The translations under genes and the position numbers were made by a program. From an uncultured Clostridium sp. (lineage in GTDB: Bacteria > Bacillota > Clostridia > TANB77 > CAG-465), in contig CAOKPF010000003.1 in the NCBI GenBank assembly GCA_948470565.1, positions 21 to 64,020 of the forward strand: DNA of 64,000 nucleotides, in the 5' to 3' direction. The first letter of the stretch is position 1. Each line of letters opens with the position of its first letter. The notes under the pieces were generated by a model, which was given only the letters and a program-made list of their open reading frames with translations, was not told the origin of the DNA and did no database searches. This document shows positions 3,462-12,539 of this stretch, piece after piece.

Positions 3462-3963
3462 CTACACTCTCCTTAAATATCTTAATGCTCTTTCTGTATG
3501 AAATGAGTACTGGTCAGTTAATTCTTTAAATTTAAGTTTATTCACAATCTCTGATACTGTAGATAATGAATCATTTACTTGCCACAGCAACGCAACAATA
3601 TCATCATCTGCAACAGGACCTATTACAACATCATATTTATTATCAATATTACATTCTAAATTATCTATATATTTAAACTTTCTATTTCTATTATTTAAAA
3701 TAAACTGTGCCCATTCTTCTGATGGCATACTTTTAAATTTTTTTATTCTAATATCACTATCTTTAAATATATTTTCATCTAATTCAAAGACATTAACAAA
3801 CGGTTTTCCTGTTCTTAATCTTCTTGTTGTTCTTACTGACATAAACTCAGCTTGTTGTCTAATTGTAGTGCAATAAAAGCCTTGTTCGAAAATCCTTAAA
3901 CTTTTTACACTTGTTTAAATCCACTTTATCTATTTTTACATTTGAGCCATGATATAAAATCAT
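3462..3963 (-). pseudogene. DUF3990-like gene interrupted by a 1-nt frameshift
   Basis: ATG at 3963 (ATGA overlap with upstream stop) gives MILYHGSNVKIDKVDLNKCKKFKDF, then stops. The other frame continues EQGFYCTTIRQQAEF into the 126-aa ORF 3462..3842. Frames differ by 1 nt near 3886-3891. Confidence 0.6.
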
Positions 3964-4184
3964 TGTATAATACCTCCATTTCCCTTGCATATTTGTATTA
4001 AATCTTCAATTGCATCATTTAAACTAACCGTATGCTCTGCCTCATAGCATTCATTTAAAAATTCTAATCCTTTATATTTCTTTAAATAATTGTATGCCTC
4101 ACTTCTCTTTATATCTTTTTGCTTTGCAAATTCATCAATACAAATAATTATATAATTTAATATTTTTATTTCTTTCTCTAACAT
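3960..4184 (-). CDS. DUF3791-like small protein
   Basis: 74-aa ORF; FAKQKDIKRSEAYNYLKKYKGLEFL...HT pattern typical of DUF3791. Confidence 0.7.
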   Translation of the reverse strand: MLEKEIKILNYIIICIDEFAKQKDIKRSEAYNYLKKYKGLEFLNECYEAEHTVSLNDAIEDLIQICKGNGGIIQ

Positions 4185-4301: not shown

Positions 4302-5507
4302 CTAAAAATTATCATCTAGCAAAAAGTCTATTAAATTAACATGCTTTATACCATTATATTCATAATCCAACTTATCTAATGTAATTACATATTTAGGATA
4401 ATTATCATTTATCACATCATATGCTCCAAATTCTCTATTTTTAGTACTTTCATTTGAAATGCAAAAAGCTACTTGAACATATATTTTTTTATTAGGTTTT
4501 GTAGCAACAAAATCAATTTCACCTTTTTTAGTTTTACCTGTATATACGTCATATCCTTTTATAATAAGTTCATTATATACAATATTTTCAATAACATATG
4601 ATTTATTCATTTCTATTTTATTATTTTTTATCTGTGCAATTCCCAAATCTGTAACATAATATTTATTTAATGTTTTTAAAATTGCTCTACCATGTATATC
4701 ATACCTATATACTTTTCTAATTAACAACGCTTTACAAAGCGCATCTATATATGAATATATAGTAAGTGTAGAAACCTCTCTTCCCTCATTTTTTAAAAAA
4801 TTGATAATATTTTCTGCCGAAAACTCTCTTCCAATTGTATCTATTATATATTGCAAAATTAAATTAAATAAAATAGTATCTCTTATTTTTAATCTTTCAA
4901 CAACATCTCTTAATATAATAGAATCAAAAACACCATAAAGATAATTTTTTATTGATTCTTCCTTTTTAAATTCAAATCTATTAGGAAGCCCGCCCCATTT
5001 CATATAATTTTCAAACATTTCCTCTGTTGATTCTTTACTTCCTTGCAAACTCAATACTTCTTTATATGATAGCGGATTTATCTTAAAACTTACATATCTT
5101 CCTGACAGTATAGTAGATAATTCCTCTGACAACAAGCGACTATTCGAACCTGTAATAAATATACTTACCTTTTTAGATGCCCTTAAGGAATTTATAACCT
5201 TTTCAAAATTTTCTACATTTTGAATTTCATCAAAAAATAAATAATATAGATTTCCATCTTGCATTCTACTCTTTACATACTTGTTTAATTCTTGATATTT
5301 AGTTAAACTTTCAAATTCAATAAATTCAAAATTTACATATATAATATGTTTTTCATCTACTCCTCTATTTTTCAATTCATCAATAATTTGTTCTAAAATT
5401 ACTGACTTTCCACATCTTCGTATTCCTACTAAAATTTTTACTAAATCACTATCATAAAACTCACGTATTTTTTCTAAATATAATTCTCTTTTTAACACTT
5501 TTATCAC
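4302..5507 (-). CDS. P-loop ATPase, AAA_14 + DUF4143 architecture (COG1373-like)
   Basis: 401 aa; Walker A GIRRCGKS, Walker B LFFDEIQ, C-terminal DUF4143-like region. Confidence 0.85.
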   Translation of the reverse strand: MIKVLKRELYLEKIREFYDSDLVKILVGIRRCGKSVILEQIIDELKNRGVDEKHIIYVNFEFIEFESLTKYQELNKYVKSRMQDGNLYYLFFDEIQNVENFEKVINSLRASKKVSIFITGSNSRLLSEELSTILSGRYVSFKINPLSYKEVLSLQGSKESTEEMFENYMKWGGLPNRFEFKKEESIKNYLYGVFDSIILRDVVERLKIRDTILFNLILQYIIDTIGREFSAENIINFLKNEGREVSTLTIYSYIDALCKALLIRKVYRYDIHGRAILKTLNKYYVTDLGIAQIKNNKIEMNKSYVIENIVYNELIIKGYDVYTGKTKKGEIDFVATKPNKKIYVQVAFCISNESTKNREFGAYDVINDNYPKYVITLDKLDYEYNGIKHVNLIDFLLDDNF

Positions 5508-5700
5508 CGTTTATATTATATAATTATTATACACACTTGTCAAGTTATTTTTATATAAAAAAATAACTCATTTTTTTAACACTTTATTTTTATATATAAA
5601 AATTATTATAATATTTTTCGCTTTTTTTAAAATAAACGACAAGGTAATACATAAAAATTATAATTTAAAATATAATGTAACAAGTAAAAAAGGTGATTTT

Positions 5701-6963
5701 ATGTTAAAAATTTTTTTTAAAAGAAAATACGTAGTAGCAGTGCTATATTTAATTTCTTTAACATTCATATACACTAGTATATATGCTAGCAGTTATATAT
5801 TTTATCCTGGTAAAGAGGACTCAAATTCCATAATATCTAATTCAACAGATAAAACAGATGAGTCAAGTATATCCGCAATTGCAACACCCGAATTCTCCTT
5901 TCAATCAGAAGCACAAATACTAATGGAAGCTTCAACTGGAACAGTTATATATGCTAATAACGAAAACGAAAAACTATTACCAGCCTCTGTTACAAAAGTA
6001 ATGACTTTACTTATACTAATGGAACATATTGATAGTGGAAATATCGCATACACAGACAAAGTAACTTGCAGTGCAAATGCATCACAAATGGGTGGATCTC
6101 AAATTTGGTTTAAGGAAGGTGAAACTCTTACTATTGACGAAGCTCTAAAAGCAATTTGTGTCGTTAGTGCAAACGATGTAACAGTAGCTATTGCAGAAAT
6201 GATTGGTGGATCCGAGAGTAATTTTGTAAGCATGATGAATGAAAAAGCAAAAGAGCTTGGAATGGAAAATACACATTTTATGAATTCACATGGAATTGAT
6301 GAAGATAATCATTATACAACTGCAAAAGATATAGCAATAATGTCACGTGAACTTATACTAAAACATCCTGATATTTTAAAATATACATCAATCTGGATGG
6401 ATACACTAAGAAATGGTACTTTTGCATTATCAAGTACAAATAAATTAATAAGGTATTATGAGGGTGCTACTGGTCTAAAAACAGGTTCTACTTCCCTTGC
6501 ACTGTTTAACTTATCAGCCACAGCAACTAGAAACAACACAACATTTATATCTGTTATAATGAAAGCACCATCATCAGATATTAGATTACAGGAAACTAGA
6601 CAGCTACTAGACTATGCATTTGCAAACTATGAAACAAAAAGCCTATGTGAAAAAGGTACAATTATAGAAAATATAAAAGTAAATAAAAATGTAAATACTA
6701 GTACAAATATAGTTGTTGAAAATAATATAACAGCACTATTACAAAAAGGTACAAACGTTGATGTTACACAAAACGTATACTATAATCAAGATTTAATAGC
6801 GCCTATTACAAAAAATCAAGTTGTAGGCACAATAGATATTATAAATAAGGCTACTGGAGAAACGATTGGCTCTAGCAATCTTGTAATAGAACAGGAGATT
6901 CCAAAATCCTCTATATTAGATTATTTGAAAAAAATGTTTAATGTATATATAATAAATGTATAA
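5701..6963 (+). CDS. D-alanyl-D-alanine carboxypeptidase (S11 low-MW PBP)
   Basis: 420 aa; signal/TM N-terminus, SVTK (SxxK), SAN, KTGST motifs; SD aaaggtg upstream. Confidence 0.9.
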   Translation: MLKIFFKRKYVVAVLYLISLTFIYTSIYASSYIFYPGKEDSNSIISNSTDKTDESSISAIATPEFSFQSEAQILMEASTGTVIYANNENEKLLPASVTKVMTLLILMEHIDSGNIAYTDKVTCSANASQMGGSQIWFKEGETLTIDEALKAICVVSANDVTVAIAEMIGGSESNFVSMMNEKAKELGMENTHFMNSHGIDEDNHYTTAKDIAIMSRELILKHPDILKYTSIWMDTLRNGTFALSSTNKLIRYYEGATGLKTGSTSLALFNLSATATRNNTTFISVIMKAPSSDIRLQETRQLLDYAFANYETKSLCEKGTIIENIKVNKNVNTSTNIVVENNITALLQKGTNVDVTQNVYYNQDLIAPITKNQVVGTIDIINKATGETIGSSNLVIEQEIPKSSILDYLKKMFNVYIINV

Positions 6964-7012
6964 AAAGCAGCTAGTGCTGTAAAAAAGTCATACTATTGTA
7001 AATTATAAGGAT

Positions 7013-7060
7013 AAAAATCATTGAAAATACATATGTAAATTCAATGATTTTTTACTTTTT
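7013..7060. terminator. bidirectional rho-independent terminator
   Basis: aaaaatcattgaa (7013-7025) pairs with ttcaatgattttt (7040-7052); A-run before and T-run after. Confidence 0.6.
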
Positions 7061-7102
7061 TACAGACCCAACTATTTTTCAGTTTATGATATTGTATTTC
7101 CT

Positions 7103-7219
7103 TCATATTTTTTGCAGTTCATACGCTACCAAAAAAATATATTTAGATAGTTTTAGTGCAAGAAATGAAATTATAACTATTGCTATAATTGACATAATTA
7201 ATTTTAAAATTGTCTTCAT
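7103..7219 (-). CDS. possible 38-aa membrane peptide
   Basis: Hand-translated MKTILKLIMSIIAIVIISFLALKLSKYIFLVAYELQKI with GGAG 7 nt upstream; below ORF-track cutoff. Confidence 0.3.
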   Translation of the reverse strand: MKTILKLIMSIIAIVIISFLALKLSKYIFLVAYELQKI

Positions 7220-7429
7220 ATAATTACTCCTTTTTTGTATATTATCTTACTTTAAAATTAAATACCTCAAATATTACTACCTTTTTATTAAACCAAATAA
7301 CATTTTTATATATTAATATTATAACAAATAGTATAAATAAAATCAATAATTATGTAAATATTAATATATAACATTATATAATAAACAACAATTTAGTATT
7401 TTTTATAAAATTATACTATAACTAAATAC

Positions 7430-7456
7430 AAAAAAAACGGATATTATTCCGTCTTT
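7430..7456 (-). terminator. rho-independent terminator after nrdR
   Basis: Minus strand: aaaagACGGAataataTCCGTtttttttt about 60 nt after the nrdR stop. Confidence 0.55.
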
Positions 7457-7514
7457 TAACAACATTTTTTACTCTATATTTTTTGTAATAATTAATAATA
7501 TAAACCTAAAAGCT

Positions 7515-7970
7515 TTACTTAGCATTTAAAAGTTTATTTAATTCGGACTTAAACTCATTAATATCCTTAAATTGCCTATACACTGAAGCAAATCTGACAT
7601 AGGCTATTTCATCTAATTTTTTTATTTTTTCTATAACCATATCTCCTATTTTTTGCGCCTCAATTTCCTTATTCATAGAATTATTTACTTCCATCTCAAT
7701 ATCATTAACGGCTTTTTGAATATCGTCCATCGAAACTGGTCTTTTTTCACAAGCTTTTATAATACCATTTAAAACTTTTTCTCTATCAAACTGCTCTCTA
7801 AGCCCATTTTTCTTTATTACGACCACTGGCACATATTCAATTTTCTCATAAGTCGTAAATCTATTTTTGCAATTTATACATTCTCTTCTTCTTCTAATTG
7901 CATTACCATCTTCAATAGCTCTAGAATCTACAACTTTGCTTTCCTCACAACCACATTTTATACAATGCAT
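7515..7970 (-). CDS. nrdR: transcriptional repressor NrdR
   Basis: 151 aa; N-terminal zinc ribbon CIKCG...CINC followed by an ATP-cone. Confidence 0.95.
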
Positions 7971-7985
7971 ATACTACCCCTCAAT

Positions 7986-8495
7986 TTAAAATTCATATAA
8001 TATGACTTCCTGCTGCTTTAAACTCTTTTTTACATCTATTGCCCTTTGATTAGAACTTCCCCTAAATGGAATTAAATCATCTTTTAAATTCATATCAAAC
8101 TTTCCATCAATTAATATATCTGTTACTTCCAAAAGTTCCATAAATCTGTTATTTTCATTAGCGCTAGAAATTAGTTTTTCATAAGTATATCCAGTATATA
8201 CCATAACATCATATTTATTAGTATCAATTTTTGATATAAGATTTGCAACCTGTTTTGCTTGAACAAAAGGCTCTCCTCCACTAATAGTAATGCCTCTTAA
8301 TAGTGGATCTTTTCCAAAATCTTCTATAATTTTATCTATATTTACAATCTTGCCACTATTAAAATCATGCGTTTGAGGATTATGACAGCCCTCACAATTA
8401 TGAGGGCAACCTTGTGTAAAAACTACGTATCTAAGTCCTGGTCCATCGACAATAGATTCTTTTACAACTCCTGCTATTCTAATAGAATCTTCCAA
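7986..8495 (-). CDS. nrdG: anaerobic ribonucleotide reductase activating protein (radical SAM)
   Basis: 169 aa; ESIVDGPGLRYVVFTQGCPHNCEGC cluster motif; located in the nrd operon. Confidence 0.9.
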   Translation of the reverse strand: MEDSIRIAGVVKESIVDGPGLRYVVFTQGCPHNCEGCHNPQTHDFNSGKIVNIDKIIEDFGKDPLLRGITISGGEPFVQAKQVANLISKIDTNKYDVMVYTGYTYEKLISSANENNRFMELLEVTDILIDGKFDMNLKDDLIPFRGSSNQRAIDVKKSLKQQEVILYEF

Positions 8496-8508
8496 AATTT
8501 TTCATCTC

Positions 8509-8793
8509 CTAAAAGTCACAGCTACAACATTCTATTCCATGTTTTACTCTGTCATGTTCTTCAGCTCTTTTTCCATCGTTAAATCTATCAACTGTACCAA
8601 CTAAATATCCTGTTATTCTTCTAATTCTTTCAAATGGTTCTGATTCAAATGTATAGTTCATATCAACATATCCACCATCTACTTTTAAATCTAAAGTACT
8701 AATTTCTTTATTAGGAAATTTTTCACCAATATATTTTACATAGCTTCCTATTTCCTCATTACTCATTTCTCCACCAATTACATTTACTTTCAT
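8509..8793 (-). CDS. stand-alone NrdD C-terminal glycyl-radical module (94 aa)
   Basis: RRITGYLVGTVDRFNDGKRAEEHDRVKH matches the NrdD C-terminus (E. coli RVCGYLG...FNAGKQEEVKRRVKH); own AGGAGGG SD. Confidence 0.75.
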   Translation of the reverse strand: MKVNVIGGEMSNEEIGSYVKYIGEKFPNKEISTLDLKVDGGYVDMNYTFESEPFERIRRITGYLVGTVDRFNDGKRAEEHDRVKHGIECCSCDF

Positions 8794-8852
8794 AATATAC
8801 CCTCCTAAATTACATATACATATATGTATAATTATATTTTATCTCTAACTTA

Positions 8853-11102
8853 TTAATTTTTTGTTATTCTTTTTATTCTTTCAAACAAAACTTGTGATTC
8901 TTGATGTTCACGTCTTCCACACTGAGGACATACTCCATCAATTACTCCTGTATATCCACAAACTGGATCTCTATCTACTGGATGGTTAACAGAACCATAA
9001 CCAATACCAGATTCTTTCATACATCTTACAATCTGTTCAAATGCTTCTAAATTTTGAGTAGGATCACCATCTAATTCAACATAACTAATATGACCTCCAT
9101 TAGTAAGATTATGATATGGAGCCTCTCTCTTTATCTTTTCAAAAGCATTTATATTGTAATATACTGGCACATGGAAAGAATTTGTATAATAATATCTATC
9201 TGTTACTCCTTCAATTTTTCCAAATTTCTTTCTATCCATTTTTACAAATCTTCCAGATAATCCCTCTGCTGGTGTTGCAATTAAAGAAAAATTAAGTCCT
9301 GTTTTTTTACTTGCCTCATCTACTCTATCTCTCATATGTCCAATTATTTTTAAGCCTAGTTCCTGCGCTCTTTTGCTTTCACCATGATGCTCACCAATAA
9401 GAACTTTCAAAGTTTCTGCAAGCCCAATGAAACCAACTGTTAAAGTACCATGTTTTAACACTTCTCTTACTTCATCATTAGGTTTTAATTTCTCTGAATC
9501 TAACCATACACCTTGTTGCATTAAAAATGGATAATTCATTGCTTTTTTACGAGATTGGATTTCTAACCTATCAAGTAATTGTTCTTCTACTAAATCAATT
9601 TTTTCATCTAAGAGTTCAAAGAATTTATCAATATCATTATGTGCTAATATACCAAGTCTTGGTAAATTAATAGATGTAAAGCTCAAATTTCCTCTACCAC
9701 TTGTAATTTCTCTTGTCTTATCATAATTATTTGCCATAACTCTAGTTCTACAACCCATATATGAAATTTCAGAATTATAGTCACCAGGTCTATAATATTG
9801 CAAATTAAAAGGTGCATCTATAAATGAGAAATTAGGAAATAATCTTTTAGCAGAAACTCTACATGCAAGTTTAAAAATATCATAATTTGGATCTCCTACA
9901 TTATAGTTAATTCCCTCTTTTATTTTAAGTATTTGAATTGGGAAAATTGGAGTTTCACCATTTCCAAGTCCTGCCTCAGTAGCATATAACAACTCTTCCA
10001 TAACCATTCTACCCTCAGGAGTAGTATCTAAACCATAATTTATACTACTAAATGGTACTTGTGCACCAGCACGAGAATGCATAGTATTTAGATTATGTAT
10101 AAAGCCTTCCATTGCTTGGTATGTAGCTTTTCTTGTTTCTTCCTCTGTGTGCTTTCTTACAAATTCTTGAATTTTATTTACAGTCTTTTCATCATAATCT
10201 TTTAATAATTCACGTCTCTCTTCTCTTAAATAATTGTTAGTATCTTTTAATGTAGCATCTAAATCTTTGTTATATTTTATACCATAAACAATATTTTTAG
10301 CATAGCTTTGGGCATCTTTCCTATCTACAAGAAGTTCTAATGCTTTTATCAAATTATTTAAATGCTCTCTTCTATATGTTTTTCTAACTCCAAGCGACAT
10401 AGCATATTCAAAATTAGGAATACTTTGACCACCATGTTGATCATTTTGATTTGACTGAATTGCAATCGCAGCTAAAGCTGCATAGCTTCCTATTGACTGT
10501 GGTTCTCTTAAATGTCCCTCACCAGTACAAAAGCCACCTTTAAATAATTTTATCAAGTCAATTTGACAACAAGTTGTAGTAAGTGTTAAAAAGTCCAAAT
10601 CATGTATATGTATATCACCATTTAAATGAGCTTCAGAATGCTCTTTTTTTAATACAAACATCTGATAAAATTTCTTTGCACCCTCACTACCATATTTTAG
10701 CATTGTTCCCATTGCAGTATCAGCATTTACATTTGCATTTTCTCTTTTAATATTGCTATCTTTAGAATCTGAAAATGTAAGTTGTTCAAAAGTTTTCATA
10801 ATCTCAGAATTCATATCTCTATGCCTTGTTCTATCAGCTCTATACAGTATGTATGCTTTAGCAGTAGATGCTTTTCCCTCTTCTATTAGTACGTGTTCAA
10901 CTGCATCTTGAACCTGTTCAACAGTAGGATAATCTATTTTCATATTCTCCTCTACATATTGGCAAACTTTTTCAGCAAGTAATGTTGCCTCTTCATAGTT
11001 TTTTCCACCAATAGATTTTGCAGCTCTGTAAATTGCTTTTGCAATTTTTTCTACATTAAATGGAACTTTTCTTCCATCTCTTTTTACTATCATCGTAATC
11101 AA
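8853..11102 (-). CDS. nrdD: anaerobic ribonucleoside-triphosphate reductase large chain, lacking the glycyl-radical end
   Basis: ATP-cone start MIVKRDGRKVPF, class III RNR body, zinc-ribbon CPQCG, ends ...FERIKRITKN then TAA TAA. Start is ambiguous: TTG 11102 has the best SD spacing; alternatives are ATG 11093 and GTG 11126. Confidence 0.9.
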   Translation of the reverse strand: MITMIVKRDGRKVPFNVEKIAKAIYRAAKSIGGKNYEEATLLAEKVCQYVEENMKIDYPTVEQVQDAVEHVLIEEGKASTAKAYILYRADRTRHRDMNSEIMKTFEQLTFSDSKDSNIKRENANVNADTAMGTMLKYGSEGAKKFYQMFVLKKEHSEAHLNGDIHIHDLDFLTLTTTCCQIDLIKLFKGGFCTGEGHLREPQSIGSYAALAAIAIQSNQNDQHGGQSIPNFEYAMSLGVRKTYRREHLNNLIKALELLVDRKDAQSYAKNIVYGIKYNKDLDATLKDTNNYLREERRELLKDYDEKTVNKIQEFVRKHTEEETRKATYQAMEGFIHNLNTMHSRAGAQVPFSSINYGLDTTPEGRMVMEELLYATEAGLGNGETPIFPIQILKIKEGINYNVGDPNYDIFKLACRVSAKRLFPNFSFIDAPFNLQYYRPGDYNSEISYMGCRTRVMANNYDKTREITSGRGNLSFTSINLPRLGILAHNDIDKFFELLDEKIDLVEEQLLDRLEIQSRKKAMNYPFLMQQGVWLDSEKLKPNDEVREVLKHGTLTVGFIGLAETLKVLIGEHHGESKRAQELGLKIIGHMRDRVDEASKKTGLNFSLIATPAEGLSGRFVKMDRKKFGKIEGVTDRYYYTNSFHVPVYYNINAFEKIKREAPYHNLTNGGHISYVELDGDPTQNLEAFEQIVRCMKESGIGYGSVNHPVDRDPVCGYTGVIDGVCPQCGRREHQESQVLFERIKRITKN

Positions 11103-11138
11103 AACGATACCACCCCTTGTATTCACTCATCTAGCAAA

Positions 11139-11154
11139 ACACAATATATTGTGT
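11139..11154. promoter_or_regulatory. NrdR box
   Basis: Perfect 16-bp palindrome acacaatatattgtgt just downstream of the nrdD -10 element. Confidence 0.8.
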
Positions 11155-11167
11155 TTCAACAATTGCT

Positions 11168-11196
11168 ATTATACCATTACCAAAAATTAATGTCAA
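11168..11196 (-). promoter_or_regulatory. sigma-A type promoter of the nrd operon
   Basis: Minus strand TTGACA, 17 nt, TATAAT (tgtcaa 11191-11196, attata 11168-11173). Confidence 0.65.
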
Positions 11197-11369
11197 TACT
11201 TTTCGACAAAAAAAATCAATAAAAAATATGGCAAATTTTTACATATTTTAAGCCATATTTTTACAATGTTTTGCACCATAACAGATCCAAAATTTTAATA
11301 CTACATAAATGTTTTACATATATATTTTACATATATAATTATAAAATGATTTTTTCCAAAAATTACATT

Positions 11370-12539
11370 TTATAGTGTACTTCTTTCTTTAAACATATTT
11401 AAAAGTCCCTCTTTTATGTAATCATATACTGTCTTTTTGTAAATGTCCTCTTCTAATAAGACTTCTTTTTCATAAATTATTTCTTCATCAATATACACTT
11501 TTATATCACCAATTTTTGTTCCCTTTTGCATTGGTGGTTCTATATTTTCTATAATATCCTGTTTTATATATATACTATCATATTCTTCTTGGGTAAGTGG
11601 CAATACTAATGTATCAGACATCTTTCTTTCATAATATTTAATATTTCCTTTATACACAGGTATTTTTATATAAAAGTTTAAATACTTAGATATATCCATA
11701 TAATTATATTTTGCAAAACACGCCTCTAATAATTCTTTAGCCTCACCAAATCTTAACTGTGTAGTTTCTGCTCCAAGTATTACAGAGATAAATCTTTTAT
11801 CAGATTTTGTAGCAGATGCAATTAAGCACCTATTAGCACCATTTGTAAAACCTGTTTTTACTCCATCTGCATAATCATAAGTTCTAAGCAAGGCATTAGT
11901 ATTTTTAAGAAGTTTAGAAAATGAACCAAAATTAATAGTAGCCGTATTGGTATTTACAGCCTCATTAATATATTTATTATTTAGAGCATATCTAGCAATT
12001 AGTGCCATGTCTTTAGCAGTTGAGTAATGCTCTTCATTATCAAGTCCATGTGGATTAGCAAATTTGGTATTTAATGCCCCTATACTTCTTGCTTTATTTG
12101 TCATCATTACTGCAAAATTTTCTATACTCCCACCAATATGAAAACCTACTGTATATGCACAATCATTTCCAGATGGGAGCAACATTCCATAAAGTAAGCT
12201 TTTTGCAGTTACCATATCACCTTTTTTTAATCCAACTGTTGACCCACCTATCCAAGTTGCATCTGCTGGTACTTCTATTTGTTCAGACATATCACAACTT
12301 TCTACAAGCATAATTGATGTCATAACTTTAGTAAGAGATGCTATTTTTCTTTGTTCATCTGCATTTTTATCATATAACACTCTACCTGTATTATAATCTA
12401 TTACTACTGCTGCTAGAGATGATATATCTAAAAAATTCTTATCCTCGGCTGCAAACACTCCTACATTAAGTATACATATTTCTATAAAGTACAAAATTAA
12501 AATATTACTAACTATAATTTTAAAATATTTATTCCTCAT
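11370..12539 (-). CDS. D-alanyl-D-alanine carboxypeptidase (S11 low-MW PBP), second copy
   Basis: 389 aa; SLTK, SGND, KTGFT motifs, N-terminal TM segment. Confidence 0.9.
   Translation of the reverse strand: MRNKYFKIIVSNILILYFIEICILNVGVFAAEDKNFLDISSLAAVVIDYNTGRVLYDKNADEQRKIASLTKVMTSIMLVESCDMSEQIEVPADATWIGGSTVGLKKGDMVTAKSLLYGMLLPSGNDCAYTVGFHIGGSIENFAVMMTNKARSIGALNTKFANPHGLDNEEHYSTAKDMALIARYALNNKYINEAVNTNTATINFGSFSKLLKNTNALLRTYDYADGVKTGFTNGANRCLIASATKSDKRFISVILGAETTQLRFGEAKELLEACFAKYNYMDISKYLNFYIKIPVYKGNIKYYERKMSDTLVLPLTQEEYDSIYIKQDIIENIEPPMQKGTKIGDIKVYIDEEIIYEKEVLLEEDIYKKTVYDYIKEGLLNMFKERSTL

Follow-up and report, generated by a model that had tools for sequence, protein, structure and literature searches.

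A candidate two-polypeptide class III ribonucleotide reductase from an uncultured Clostridium, with the radical glycine encoded on a separate small protein

Class III ribonucleotide reductase (RNR) is the sole de novo source of deoxyribonucleoside triphosphates (dNTPs) for many strict anaerobes. How can such an enzyme be encoded by a gene that stops short of its radical glycine? This question is raised by the nrdD locus of an uncultured Clostridium sp., which is contained in the stretch of 64,000 nt that we analysed here (the window; GenBank assembly GCA_948470565.1, contig CAOKPF010000003.1, positions 21 to 64,020 of the forward strand). Four consecutive open reading frames (ORFs) on the minus strand encode proteins of 757 aa (8853..11126), 94 aa (8509..8793), 169 aa (7986..8495) and 151 aa (7515..7970). 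By profile matches these are NrdD, a fragment that matches just the last ~40 positions of NrdD models, the activase NrdG and the repressor NrdR; all features of the operon described below are on the minus strand. An earlier note on this DNA had described the ORFs, the stops, the Shine-Dalgarno (SD) sequence and a direct repeat, and every statement of that description holds. We also agree with its central observation that the radical glycine is found off the NrdD chain, on a separate 94-aa protein encoded between nrdD and nrdG. We propose that a two-polypeptide class III RNR is encoded here, with a radical subunit that descended from a spare-part protein and is now obligatory, and we assign this reading a probability of about 75%.

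The large ORF (8853..11126) covers positions 2-719 of the 746 positions of the NCBIfam model NF005497 with 1104.6 bits (cut-off 764) and reaches 600.8 bits against TIGR02487 (cut-off 326). In Pfam, it contains the ATP-cone (PF03477, aa 12-100) and the NRDD domain (PF13597, aa 129-755, E-value 3.4e-196). Its C-terminus reads ...QESQVLFERIKRITKN and is followed by the tandem stops TAA TAA (8850..8855, with the two stops at 8855-8853 and 8852-8850); a Lys and an Asn codon separate the RIT codons from the stops. The chain thus ends ...FERIKRITKN, NF005497 positions 720-746 are missing and the radical-glycine motif RxxG[FWY] is absent. A motif search locates the finger-loop MGCRT at aa 457-461, including Cys459 (codon at 9750..9752). 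We presume that Cys459 is the thiyl-radical cysteine because of the MGCR finger-loop motif (PMC9669993) and Cys416 of the Prevotella copri NrdD (PMC11226230). The zinc ribbon is kept in the large chain as D720-P-V-C723 ... C733-P-Q-C736 (8919..8969; alignment to PDB 8p23 and 1h78). This DxxC...CxxC site aligns with the CxxC...CxxC site of the T4 and P. copri NrdD structures and has three cysteines rather than four, as had been noted before, with D720 in place of the first Cys. The Asp at this position is a trait of the clade, common to full-length NrdDs.

The missing part of the profile is found in the 94-aa ORF, which reads ...TFESEPFERIRRITGYLVGTVDRFNDGKRAEEHDRVKHGIECCSCDF. Its residues 48-86 correspond to NF005497 positions 706-744 and complement the large ORF with an overlap of 14 positions, so that an alignment of both ORFs to the NrdD profile, as proposed in the earlier note, yields complementary coverage (2-719 and 706-744). 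The Pfam NRDD model gives the same picture, with positions 1-540 of 562 covered by the large ORF and 531-562 by the small one. The glycyl-radical loop and tail (codons 51-86, 8536..8643) have the sequence SEPFERIRRITGYLVGTVDRFNDGKRAEEHDRVKH. In this region, FERIRRIT is followed by the radical glycine Gly62 (codon at 8608-8610, motif RITG62Y) and YLVGTVDRFNDGKRAEEHDRVKH, and the protein then ends with GIECCSCDF. In a PDB sequence search, the loop part is matched to residues 706-738 of P. copri NrdD, which surround the radical Gly711, and hhalign compares it to NrdD C-termini with a probability of 99.8%. In Pfam and NCBIfam scans, the 94-aa protein matches NrdD models alone, and neither GrcA models nor the Gly_radical domain of the pyruvate formate-lyase (PFL) type (PF01228, IPR011140) were matched. 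Likewise, the PDB sequence search with the small protein found NrdD alone, and these matches involve the loop part alone.

The remainder of the small protein is an N-terminal orphan domain (codons 1-50, 8644..8793), which is conserved in the family and has a predicted beta-alpha-beta-beta fold. In a family alignment (n=24), M1, E14, I15, Y18, G40, V43, Y47 and F49 are invariant in this part and the loop FERIRRITGYLVGT..RFN..KRAEE.DRVKH is near-invariant, whereas the Cys-rich tail (GIECCSCDF and stop, 8509..8535) is variable and unconserved. In pairwise comparisons with five relatives, the ratio of non-synonymous to synonymous substitution rates (dN/dS) is 0.2-0.5 in codons 1-50 and falls to 0.07-0.2 in codons 51-86, which argues that the whole small ORF is translated and selected. 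An AlphaFold2 (AF2) model of the small protein has a mean predicted local distance difference test (pLDDT) score of 64. Residues 1-49 are predicted to be folded as beta-alpha-beta-beta (pLDDT ~77), loop residues 53-75 are predicted to be disordered (pLDDT <50), and the final strand 78-84 reaches a pLDDT of ~50-60. The N-domain is not detectably similar to NrdD C-terminal regions (hhalign probability 0.4%) and matches no consistent Pfam family. A fused form was not found either, as the N-domain motif occurs in no long protein of any retrieved set. PHROGs contains no dedicated family for the small protein, and among GenBank phages the full small protein occurs in unannotated fecal phage fragments alone.

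Is the small gene a product of this locus, or is it older than the split? A protein database search with the 94 residues retrieved more than 100 clusters of 82-98 aa with 66-99% identity. Furthermore, a scan with one genome per species revealed at least 80 loci, and a scan of IMG/VR at least 80 viral loci; the figures given here are based on the 80 genome loci and 80 viral loci that were listed. The raw match counts (597 in genomes and 581 in viruses) were not used because they include matches of the loop alone, which are possibly ordinary NrdD C-termini. In all 80 listed genome loci and all 80 listed viral loci, the match begins at about residues 1-11 and extends to about residues 85-94. The hosts of the listed genome loci include Ruminococcus, Oscillospiraceae, Christensenellales, Lachnospiraceae, Erysipelotrichaceae and even Eggerthellaceae. 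In 79/80 of the listed genome loci the small gene stands alone, i.e. homologues of the window's NrdD, NrdG and NrdR are absent within 4 kb (tblastn). We next consider NrdR-like boxes, defined as 16-mers with at most three mismatches from the consensus ACACWATATATWGTGT, which we take to be that of Rodionov and Gelfand 2005 and which is the basis for box scoring here. Their density is 2.13 per kb within 200 nt 5' of the small genes compared to 0.013 per kb in the rest of these loci, and they are present at 30/76 loci. The enrichment indicates that the stand-alone small genes are still tied to ribonucleotide reduction.

The one listed genome locus that shares the gene order of the window (L001) is also its closest relative, with an NrdD that is 82% and a small protein that is 76% identical. 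The NrdD of this locus is full-length and ends ...FERIRRITGYLVGTVDRFNNGKRAEEHDRVKHFMSECNCD, and the small gene comes next. Within the window's clade, the small gene lies between nrdD and nrdG irrespective of the presence of the NrdD radical domain. The survey of fused and split versions suggested in the earlier note thus finds both beside the small gene: nrdD is intact in L001 and L177/178, and it lacks the radical domain (hereafter domain-less) in the window, in L081-88, in L179/180 and in 14 viral loci, in each case together with the small gene and nrdG. In the 14 viral loci, the order is an nrdD with neither ATP-cone nor radical domain, then the small gene, then nrdG. Among the NrdD clusters, the radical domain is lost in P0003 and P0008, where the order is nrdD, small gene, nrdG and nrdR, and in P0402, where it is nrdD, small gene and nrdG. 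P0008 comes from the human gut; the collection lists it in 329 blocks, with contigs of up to 1.4 Mb. The domain is intact in P0327, whose relatives are named Clostridium sp. CAG:1219 and where an unknown ORF stands between nrdD and the small gene, followed by nrdG and nrdR. In this abundant CAG:1219-like lineage, the ORF between the intact nrdD and the small gene encodes 217-244 aa without a Pfam match (L177 6333-6986, L178 6333-7067). As the small gene adjoins full-length nrdD and stands alone in 79/80 listed genomes, we conclude that it predates the truncation.

The comparison of related NrdDs suggests that the truncation itself is not a singular event. The 120 closest NrdD clusters (66-83% identity) divide into 80 with a canonical radical domain and 40 without it. 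All 40 domain-less clusters keep the strand remnant [FST]ER[IL][KR]R, after which the tails diverge (e.g. SERILRIRR*, FERIRRISCASC..., ERIKRIRNYTYKD... and SERLKRFVTHGEC...). In P0398 and P0401 the domain was lost internally and the extreme C-terminal tail, common to the intact P0395 and P0400, is kept. For a neighbour-joining tree built from the core region, Fitch parsimony gives ~10 state changes, which is a rough estimate as the tree has no support values. Judging from this pattern, the cis radical domain is lost repeatedly and its loss is tolerated. An exhaustive search with the large ORF extends the pattern to more distant relatives: among representatives at 50% identity, 45 of the 81 that could be assessed by a motif screen have no canonical RxxG[YFW] after the zinc ribbon. 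The domain-less nrdD genes have a dN/dS of 0.125-0.23, which is indistinguishable from comparisons with intact genes (0.12-0.14), and the window's nrdD has 0.12-0.21 against its relatives. Since the dN/dS of the domain-less genes matches that of intact genes, they do not behave as pseudogenes, and we conclude from their substitution pattern that they are functional and under purifying selection.

At the distant loci with a domain-less NrdD that we inspected, a separate canonical mini radical-loop ORF is found near nrdG (47 aa in L169, 55 aa in L170 and 75 aa in L171). These genes represent a second architecture: they encode 47-75 aa without an N-terminal domain and lie a few genes upstream of nrdG (L169 6492-6635, L170 11027-11194, L171 10787-11014). 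Taken together, we consider it fairly likely, although less so than the reading of the window itself, that many gut Clostridia and their phages use an obligate two-subunit class III RNR. Its oxygen-labile glycyl radical would be situated on a cheap, replaceable subunit of ~10 kDa, or on a mini-peptide of ~50 aa, which derives from a spare part, and the enzyme's own domain would have been lost many times independently. This would be the first spare-part radical domain, or one acting in trans, for a glycyl-radical enzyme outside PFL.

Several additional observations concern these distant relatives. Many domain-less NrdDs, most of them intein-bearing, share a conserved pseudo radical-domain tail, GEPMTxEMWxKIKGYAxxGNxxxxGxxGxPxEExDRxxN, in which the Gly-Tyr and EExDR are kept and the arginines are lost, and a separate canonical mini radical-loop ORF is found nearby. 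This tail is carried by the NrdDs of L169 (2631-5453) and L171 (8001-10145) and by P0122, P0124, P0126, P0165 and P0417-P0425, and these NrdDs are probably from phages. In the phage-like L171, nrdD is present in two ORFs (5186-6514 and 8001-10145) with three small ORFs in between. The first of these encodes 442 aa, ends inside the barrel and has intein-splicing matches, so that the two pieces may be a split-intein arrangement. The cultured Eggerthella phage EL753P1 (L181, OP172808.1) encodes a domain-less NrdD of 952 aa plus a frameshifted mini-loop ORF at 3870-4075. There, the annotated hypothetical ORF 00009 ends ...GVGFERIRRI*. Behind what looks like an extra TGACC, TGYLTGSADRWNDAKKAELRDRVKHGK follows in a different frame. 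The frame break is located exactly at the radical glycine and may reflect a frameshift mutation, an error of sequencing or recoding.

How would a two-polypeptide enzyme of this kind work? According to our proposal, nrdD, the small gene, nrdG and nrdR would be expressed as one NrdR-controlled transcript. NrdD keeps the ATP-cone, the barrel, the presumed thiyl-radical Cys and the zinc ribbon, and only the loop and tail have moved to the small protein. NrdG would take the hydrogen from Gly62 of the small protein, and the loop would then enter the NrdD barrel beside Cys459, like the attached domain of an ordinary NrdD. In P. copri NrdD, the radical domain (676-739) consists of a zinc site, a buried glycine loop and a surface tail, and it is mobile and can leave and re-enter the barrel (PMC11226230). 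Because this domain can leave the barrel entirely, delivery of the loop in trans is physically plausible. The N-domain would probably tie the ends of the loop together or dock the loop, and thereby replace the lost covalent link; that the final strand 78-84 packs on the N-domain is a guess. Oxygen cleaves glycyl-radical proteins at the glycine, and after such damage the 10-kDa subunit alone would have to be replaced. The evolutionary path would start with a protein that, like GrcA, was a spare part to an intact NrdD, an arrangement that relatives still show, and would lead via repeated decay of the cis domain to a spare part that is obligatory.

An alternative origin of the split was put forward in the earlier note, namely that a continuous nrdD was interrupted by an insertion of ~250 bp, comprising the stop, the spacer, the SD sequence and a new N-terminus, with a duplication of 24 nt at the junction, so that the small ORF would be young and lineage-specific. 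The codons for FERI(K/R)RIT do form a direct repeat at the junction (8862-8885 and 8611-8634, 22/24 identical, spacing of 251 nt), and the two overlapping ORFs jointly rebuild the NrdD profile. Nevertheless, we regard such an insertion as very improbable and no longer follow the note on this point: the protein with N-domain and loop is present in at least 80 species genomes and at least 80 viral contigs, for the most part at a distance from nrdD, and in L001 and L177 the small gene lies downstream of a full-length NrdD. L001 has both copies of the motif without any split; its two FERIRRIT copies are 24/24 identical, and the remaining 72 nt of its two domains differ at 9 synonymous positions. 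When the DNA of the window is aligned to L001, homology extends through the RIT codons and ends after AGAATAACA, and the rest of the cis domain is missing in the window, which corresponds to the loss of a domain and not to an insertion. The identity of the repeat follows from the same residues and codon bias. Since domain-less NrdDs keep the ER[IL][KR]R strand remnant, the repeat is explained: the alignments indicate that its upstream copy (FERIKRIT, 8862..8885) is the first strand left over from the lost cis domain, written in the preferred AT-rich codons of the paralogue, and that it is neither due to chance nor a duplication scar. An artefact of sequencing or assembly as the source of the stop codons can be discounted almost entirely. 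An independent ENA metagenome assembly of the window's species (L176, ERZ14865208; 99.95% identity over 1979 nt) contains the same nrdD end and spacer, so that the junction is not an assembly artefact, and it does not restore one continuous ORF, an outcome that the earlier note had considered. In addition, NrdD ends at the same place, with differing tails, in dozens of related species and phages. In the same assembly, the small ORF (L176 599-847) carries a 1-nt deletion, GAAGAACATG to GAAGACATG, which results in 82 aa (...GKRAEDMTE*).

Could one full-length NrdD still be made from this locus, by ribosomal bypassing between the FERI(K/R)RIT copies or by protein or RNA splicing? The matching 24-nt take-off and landing sites superficially resemble the bypassing of T4 gene 60, but the small ORF is equipped with a strong SD sequence and an ATG of its own, and the N-domain, which a bypass would skip, is under purifying selection. 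Moreover, the remnant has diverged in related domain-less operons (SERLKRFV, ERIKRIRNY), which have no matching sites, and there is no Rfam intron and no intein or other Pfam match in the N-domain; we therefore give recoding or splicing next to no credence. It is also unlikely, if less remote, that nrdD is decaying or non-catalytic, with dNTPs coming from another RNR outside the window and the small protein being a leftover spare part or having another role. An NrdD without its defining radical glycine, a view limited to 64 kb of the genome and the frameshifted small ORF in L176 would fit such a decay. However, the 757 codons form an uninterrupted frame whose score is well beyond the NrdD equivalog cut-off, dN/dS of domain-less genes equals that of intact ones, and the promoter and NrdR box are perfect with nrdG and nrdR intact. 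Furthermore, the same architecture is fixed in abundant gut species (e.g. P0008) and is of repeated origin. Our preferred reading of an obligatory radical subunit has several points against it as well. The small ORF of L176 is frameshifted, which is probably an error at the contig coverage of 3.9x. One strand occurs twice, on the large chain and again in the small protein, and our reading does not account for its retention on the large chain. Another RNR (class I, class II or a second nrdD) may lie outside the 64 kb in view, in the cultured Selenomonas sp. KH1T6 neither a loop gene nor nrdG is found within 5 kb of the domain-less nrdD, and no named genome was linked to both a stand-alone small gene and a domain-less nrdD. 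Modelled on its own by AF2, the small protein gives a mediocre result, both in overall score and in the loop, and a Foldseek search against PDB gave nothing significant, with HPF/YfiA-type beta-alpha-beta-beta proteins as the best matches (E 0.03, template-modelling score ~0.35). Gene anatomy, conservation, phylogenetic pattern, purifying selection and regulatory signals are observed, and we infer that NrdG activates the small protein, that a complex forms and that it is catalytically active.

The signals around the four genes are those of a single operon, with one promoter, one NrdR box and one terminator. The sigma-70 promoter (11168..11196) has the form TTGACA-17-TATAAT with a TG extension, matches the consensus at 12/12 positions and is the best match of the region. 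Between the promoter and nrdD lies the NrdR box ACACAATATATTGTGT (11139..11154), with 0 mismatches to the consensus. The true start of nrdD is probably the ATG at 11093 (MIVKRDG) and not the mechanically assigned GTG at 11126: this ATG is preceded by AAGGGGTGG, the ATP-cone starts at MIVKRDG, and the NrdR box and promoter are directly upstream. The spacer between nrdD and the small gene (8794..8849; 59 nt from nrdD to the small ORF) contains an AT-rich palindrome, TATACATATATGTATA (8815-8830), and the SD sequence AGGAGGG (8800-8806), and no terminator. The palindrome is perfect over 16 nt, is the same in the assembly L176 and is not an NrdR box. The small gene (8509..8793) starts with the ATG at 8793, 7 bases downstream of its own SD sequence. 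Directly downstream of the small ORF follows nrdG (7986..8495), so that the radical S-adenosylmethionine activase expected of a class III RNR system is present (TIGR02491 with 152.3 bits, cut-off 126.1; Fer4_12 with an E-value of 2.4e-39). The last gene is nrdR (7515..7970; TIGR00244 with 206.7 bits), and the operon ends with an intrinsic terminator (7432..7457), the sole terminator-like site in 7300-11500. No second nrdD was found within the 64-kb window, and a scan of the window found no tRNA genes. Rfam detected no intron, riboswitch or other RNA, both in 7000-12000 at E<=1 and in the whole window at the gathering score. The ORFs flanking the operon, 5701-6963 on the plus strand and 11370-12539 on the minus strand, resemble secreted D-alanyl-D-alanine carboxypeptidases; this putative assignment is read from the SxxK-type motifs ASVTKVMT and ASLTKVMT in the translations.

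The Cys-rich tail of the small protein had been suggested in the earlier note to compensate for the three-Cys zinc site of the large chain. We reject this as a general mechanism, as intact NrdDs of the clade also have DxxC...CxxC and Cys-less tails exist. Among 118 relatives, the small-protein tail contains at least two Cys in 80 and none in 20. In the P0327 lineage, neither chain has a Cys after RVKH (NrdD ends ...RVKHM and the small protein ...RVKHMSFQNV). Cys-rich tails after RVKH are rare in intact NrdDs (11/80) and often present on domain-less NrdDs. They may have a redox or metal role.

If the two-polypeptide reading is correct, the locus is a natural case of a repair part that turned into an essential subunit. 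It would change the annotation of anaerobic RNRs, where the small proteins are now unnamed or called NrdD and the truncated NrdDs are called complete, and it would have implications for oxygen tolerance and repair among gut anaerobes. The small protein would also be a minimal substrate for studying how NrdG recognizes its glycine. With domain-less nrdD, small gene and nrdG, the locus and its relatives form an easily cloned three-gene candidate set, for which natural controls exist: sister operons with an intact NrdD and the small protein, NrdR-controlled stand-alone genes and phage versions.

How does the proposed system compare to known ones? Spare parts are known for formate lyases alone and their occurrence for other glycyl-radical enzymes is undetermined according to a review from June 2026 (PMC13450708). 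In the literature that we searched, we found no description of a spare part of the NrdD type or of a split radical domain, although an earlier mention elsewhere is possible. The small protein is apparently the first spare-part glycyl-radical protein outside PFL. The closest analogue in function is GrcA/YfiD (and Y06I of phage T4), which takes the place of the PFL radical domain after cleavage by oxygen, with an overlap at a strand that the cleaved PFL still has and depends on (PMC13450708; PMC8683613); YfiD rescues PFL in trans (PMC13450708). The analogy to GrcA drawn in the earlier note is apt, as both are small free-standing proteins with a C-terminal copy of the radical loop of a large enzyme and an N-terminal part unrelated to this enzyme. 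In both cases, the gene frequently lacks linkage to that of the enzyme, and there are phage-encoded versions. There are also differences. The small protein is homologous to NrdD (PF13597) and not to PFL (PF01228), its N-domain is predicted to be folded and not disordered, and its overlapping strand is N-terminal and not C-terminal to the glycine. In addition, the enzyme is cut short in its gene, both in the window and in many relatives, which would make the small protein obligatory rather than a repair part.

Compared to canonical NrdD/NrdG systems (E. coli, T4 and P. copri; PDB 1h7a, 8p23), the locus shares the ATP-cone, the barrel, the MGCR loop, the zinc ribbon, NrdG and control by NrdR, and the loop of the small protein, RITGYLVGT...DRVKH, is close to P. 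copri 706-738. It differs in that the loop is on a second polypeptide and that the first zinc ligand is Asp and not Cys. In a 2022 survey of RNR extensions, the C-terminal radical domain counts as a class-defining part of the class III catalytic chain (PMC9669993). Textbooks likewise place the glycyl-radical domain on this chain. RNR genes split by mobile elements (nrdA of phage Aeh1 with a homing endonuclease, nrdD of T4 with a group I intron, and intein-containing NrdDs) resemble the locus in that a coding sequence is interrupted and the pieces cooperate. The earlier note had cited the Aeh1 case as a precedent of a different kind, but a split by a homing endonuclease or intron is not supported here, given the lack of an Rfam match, the 59-nt spacer and an N-domain without a Pfam match. 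Inteins are common elsewhere in related NrdDs and none is found at the split site of the window. Thus, the junction is without endonuclease, intron or intein, and the second piece belongs to an independent family with an added conserved domain. Lastly, the division into a large catalytic chain and a separate small subunit with a stable radical is reminiscent of class I RNR (NrdA/NrdB). NrdB, however, is an unrelated ferritin-like di-metal protein with long-range radical transfer, whereas the glycyl radical of the small protein would insert directly into the barrel after activation by the radical S-adenosylmethionine enzyme.

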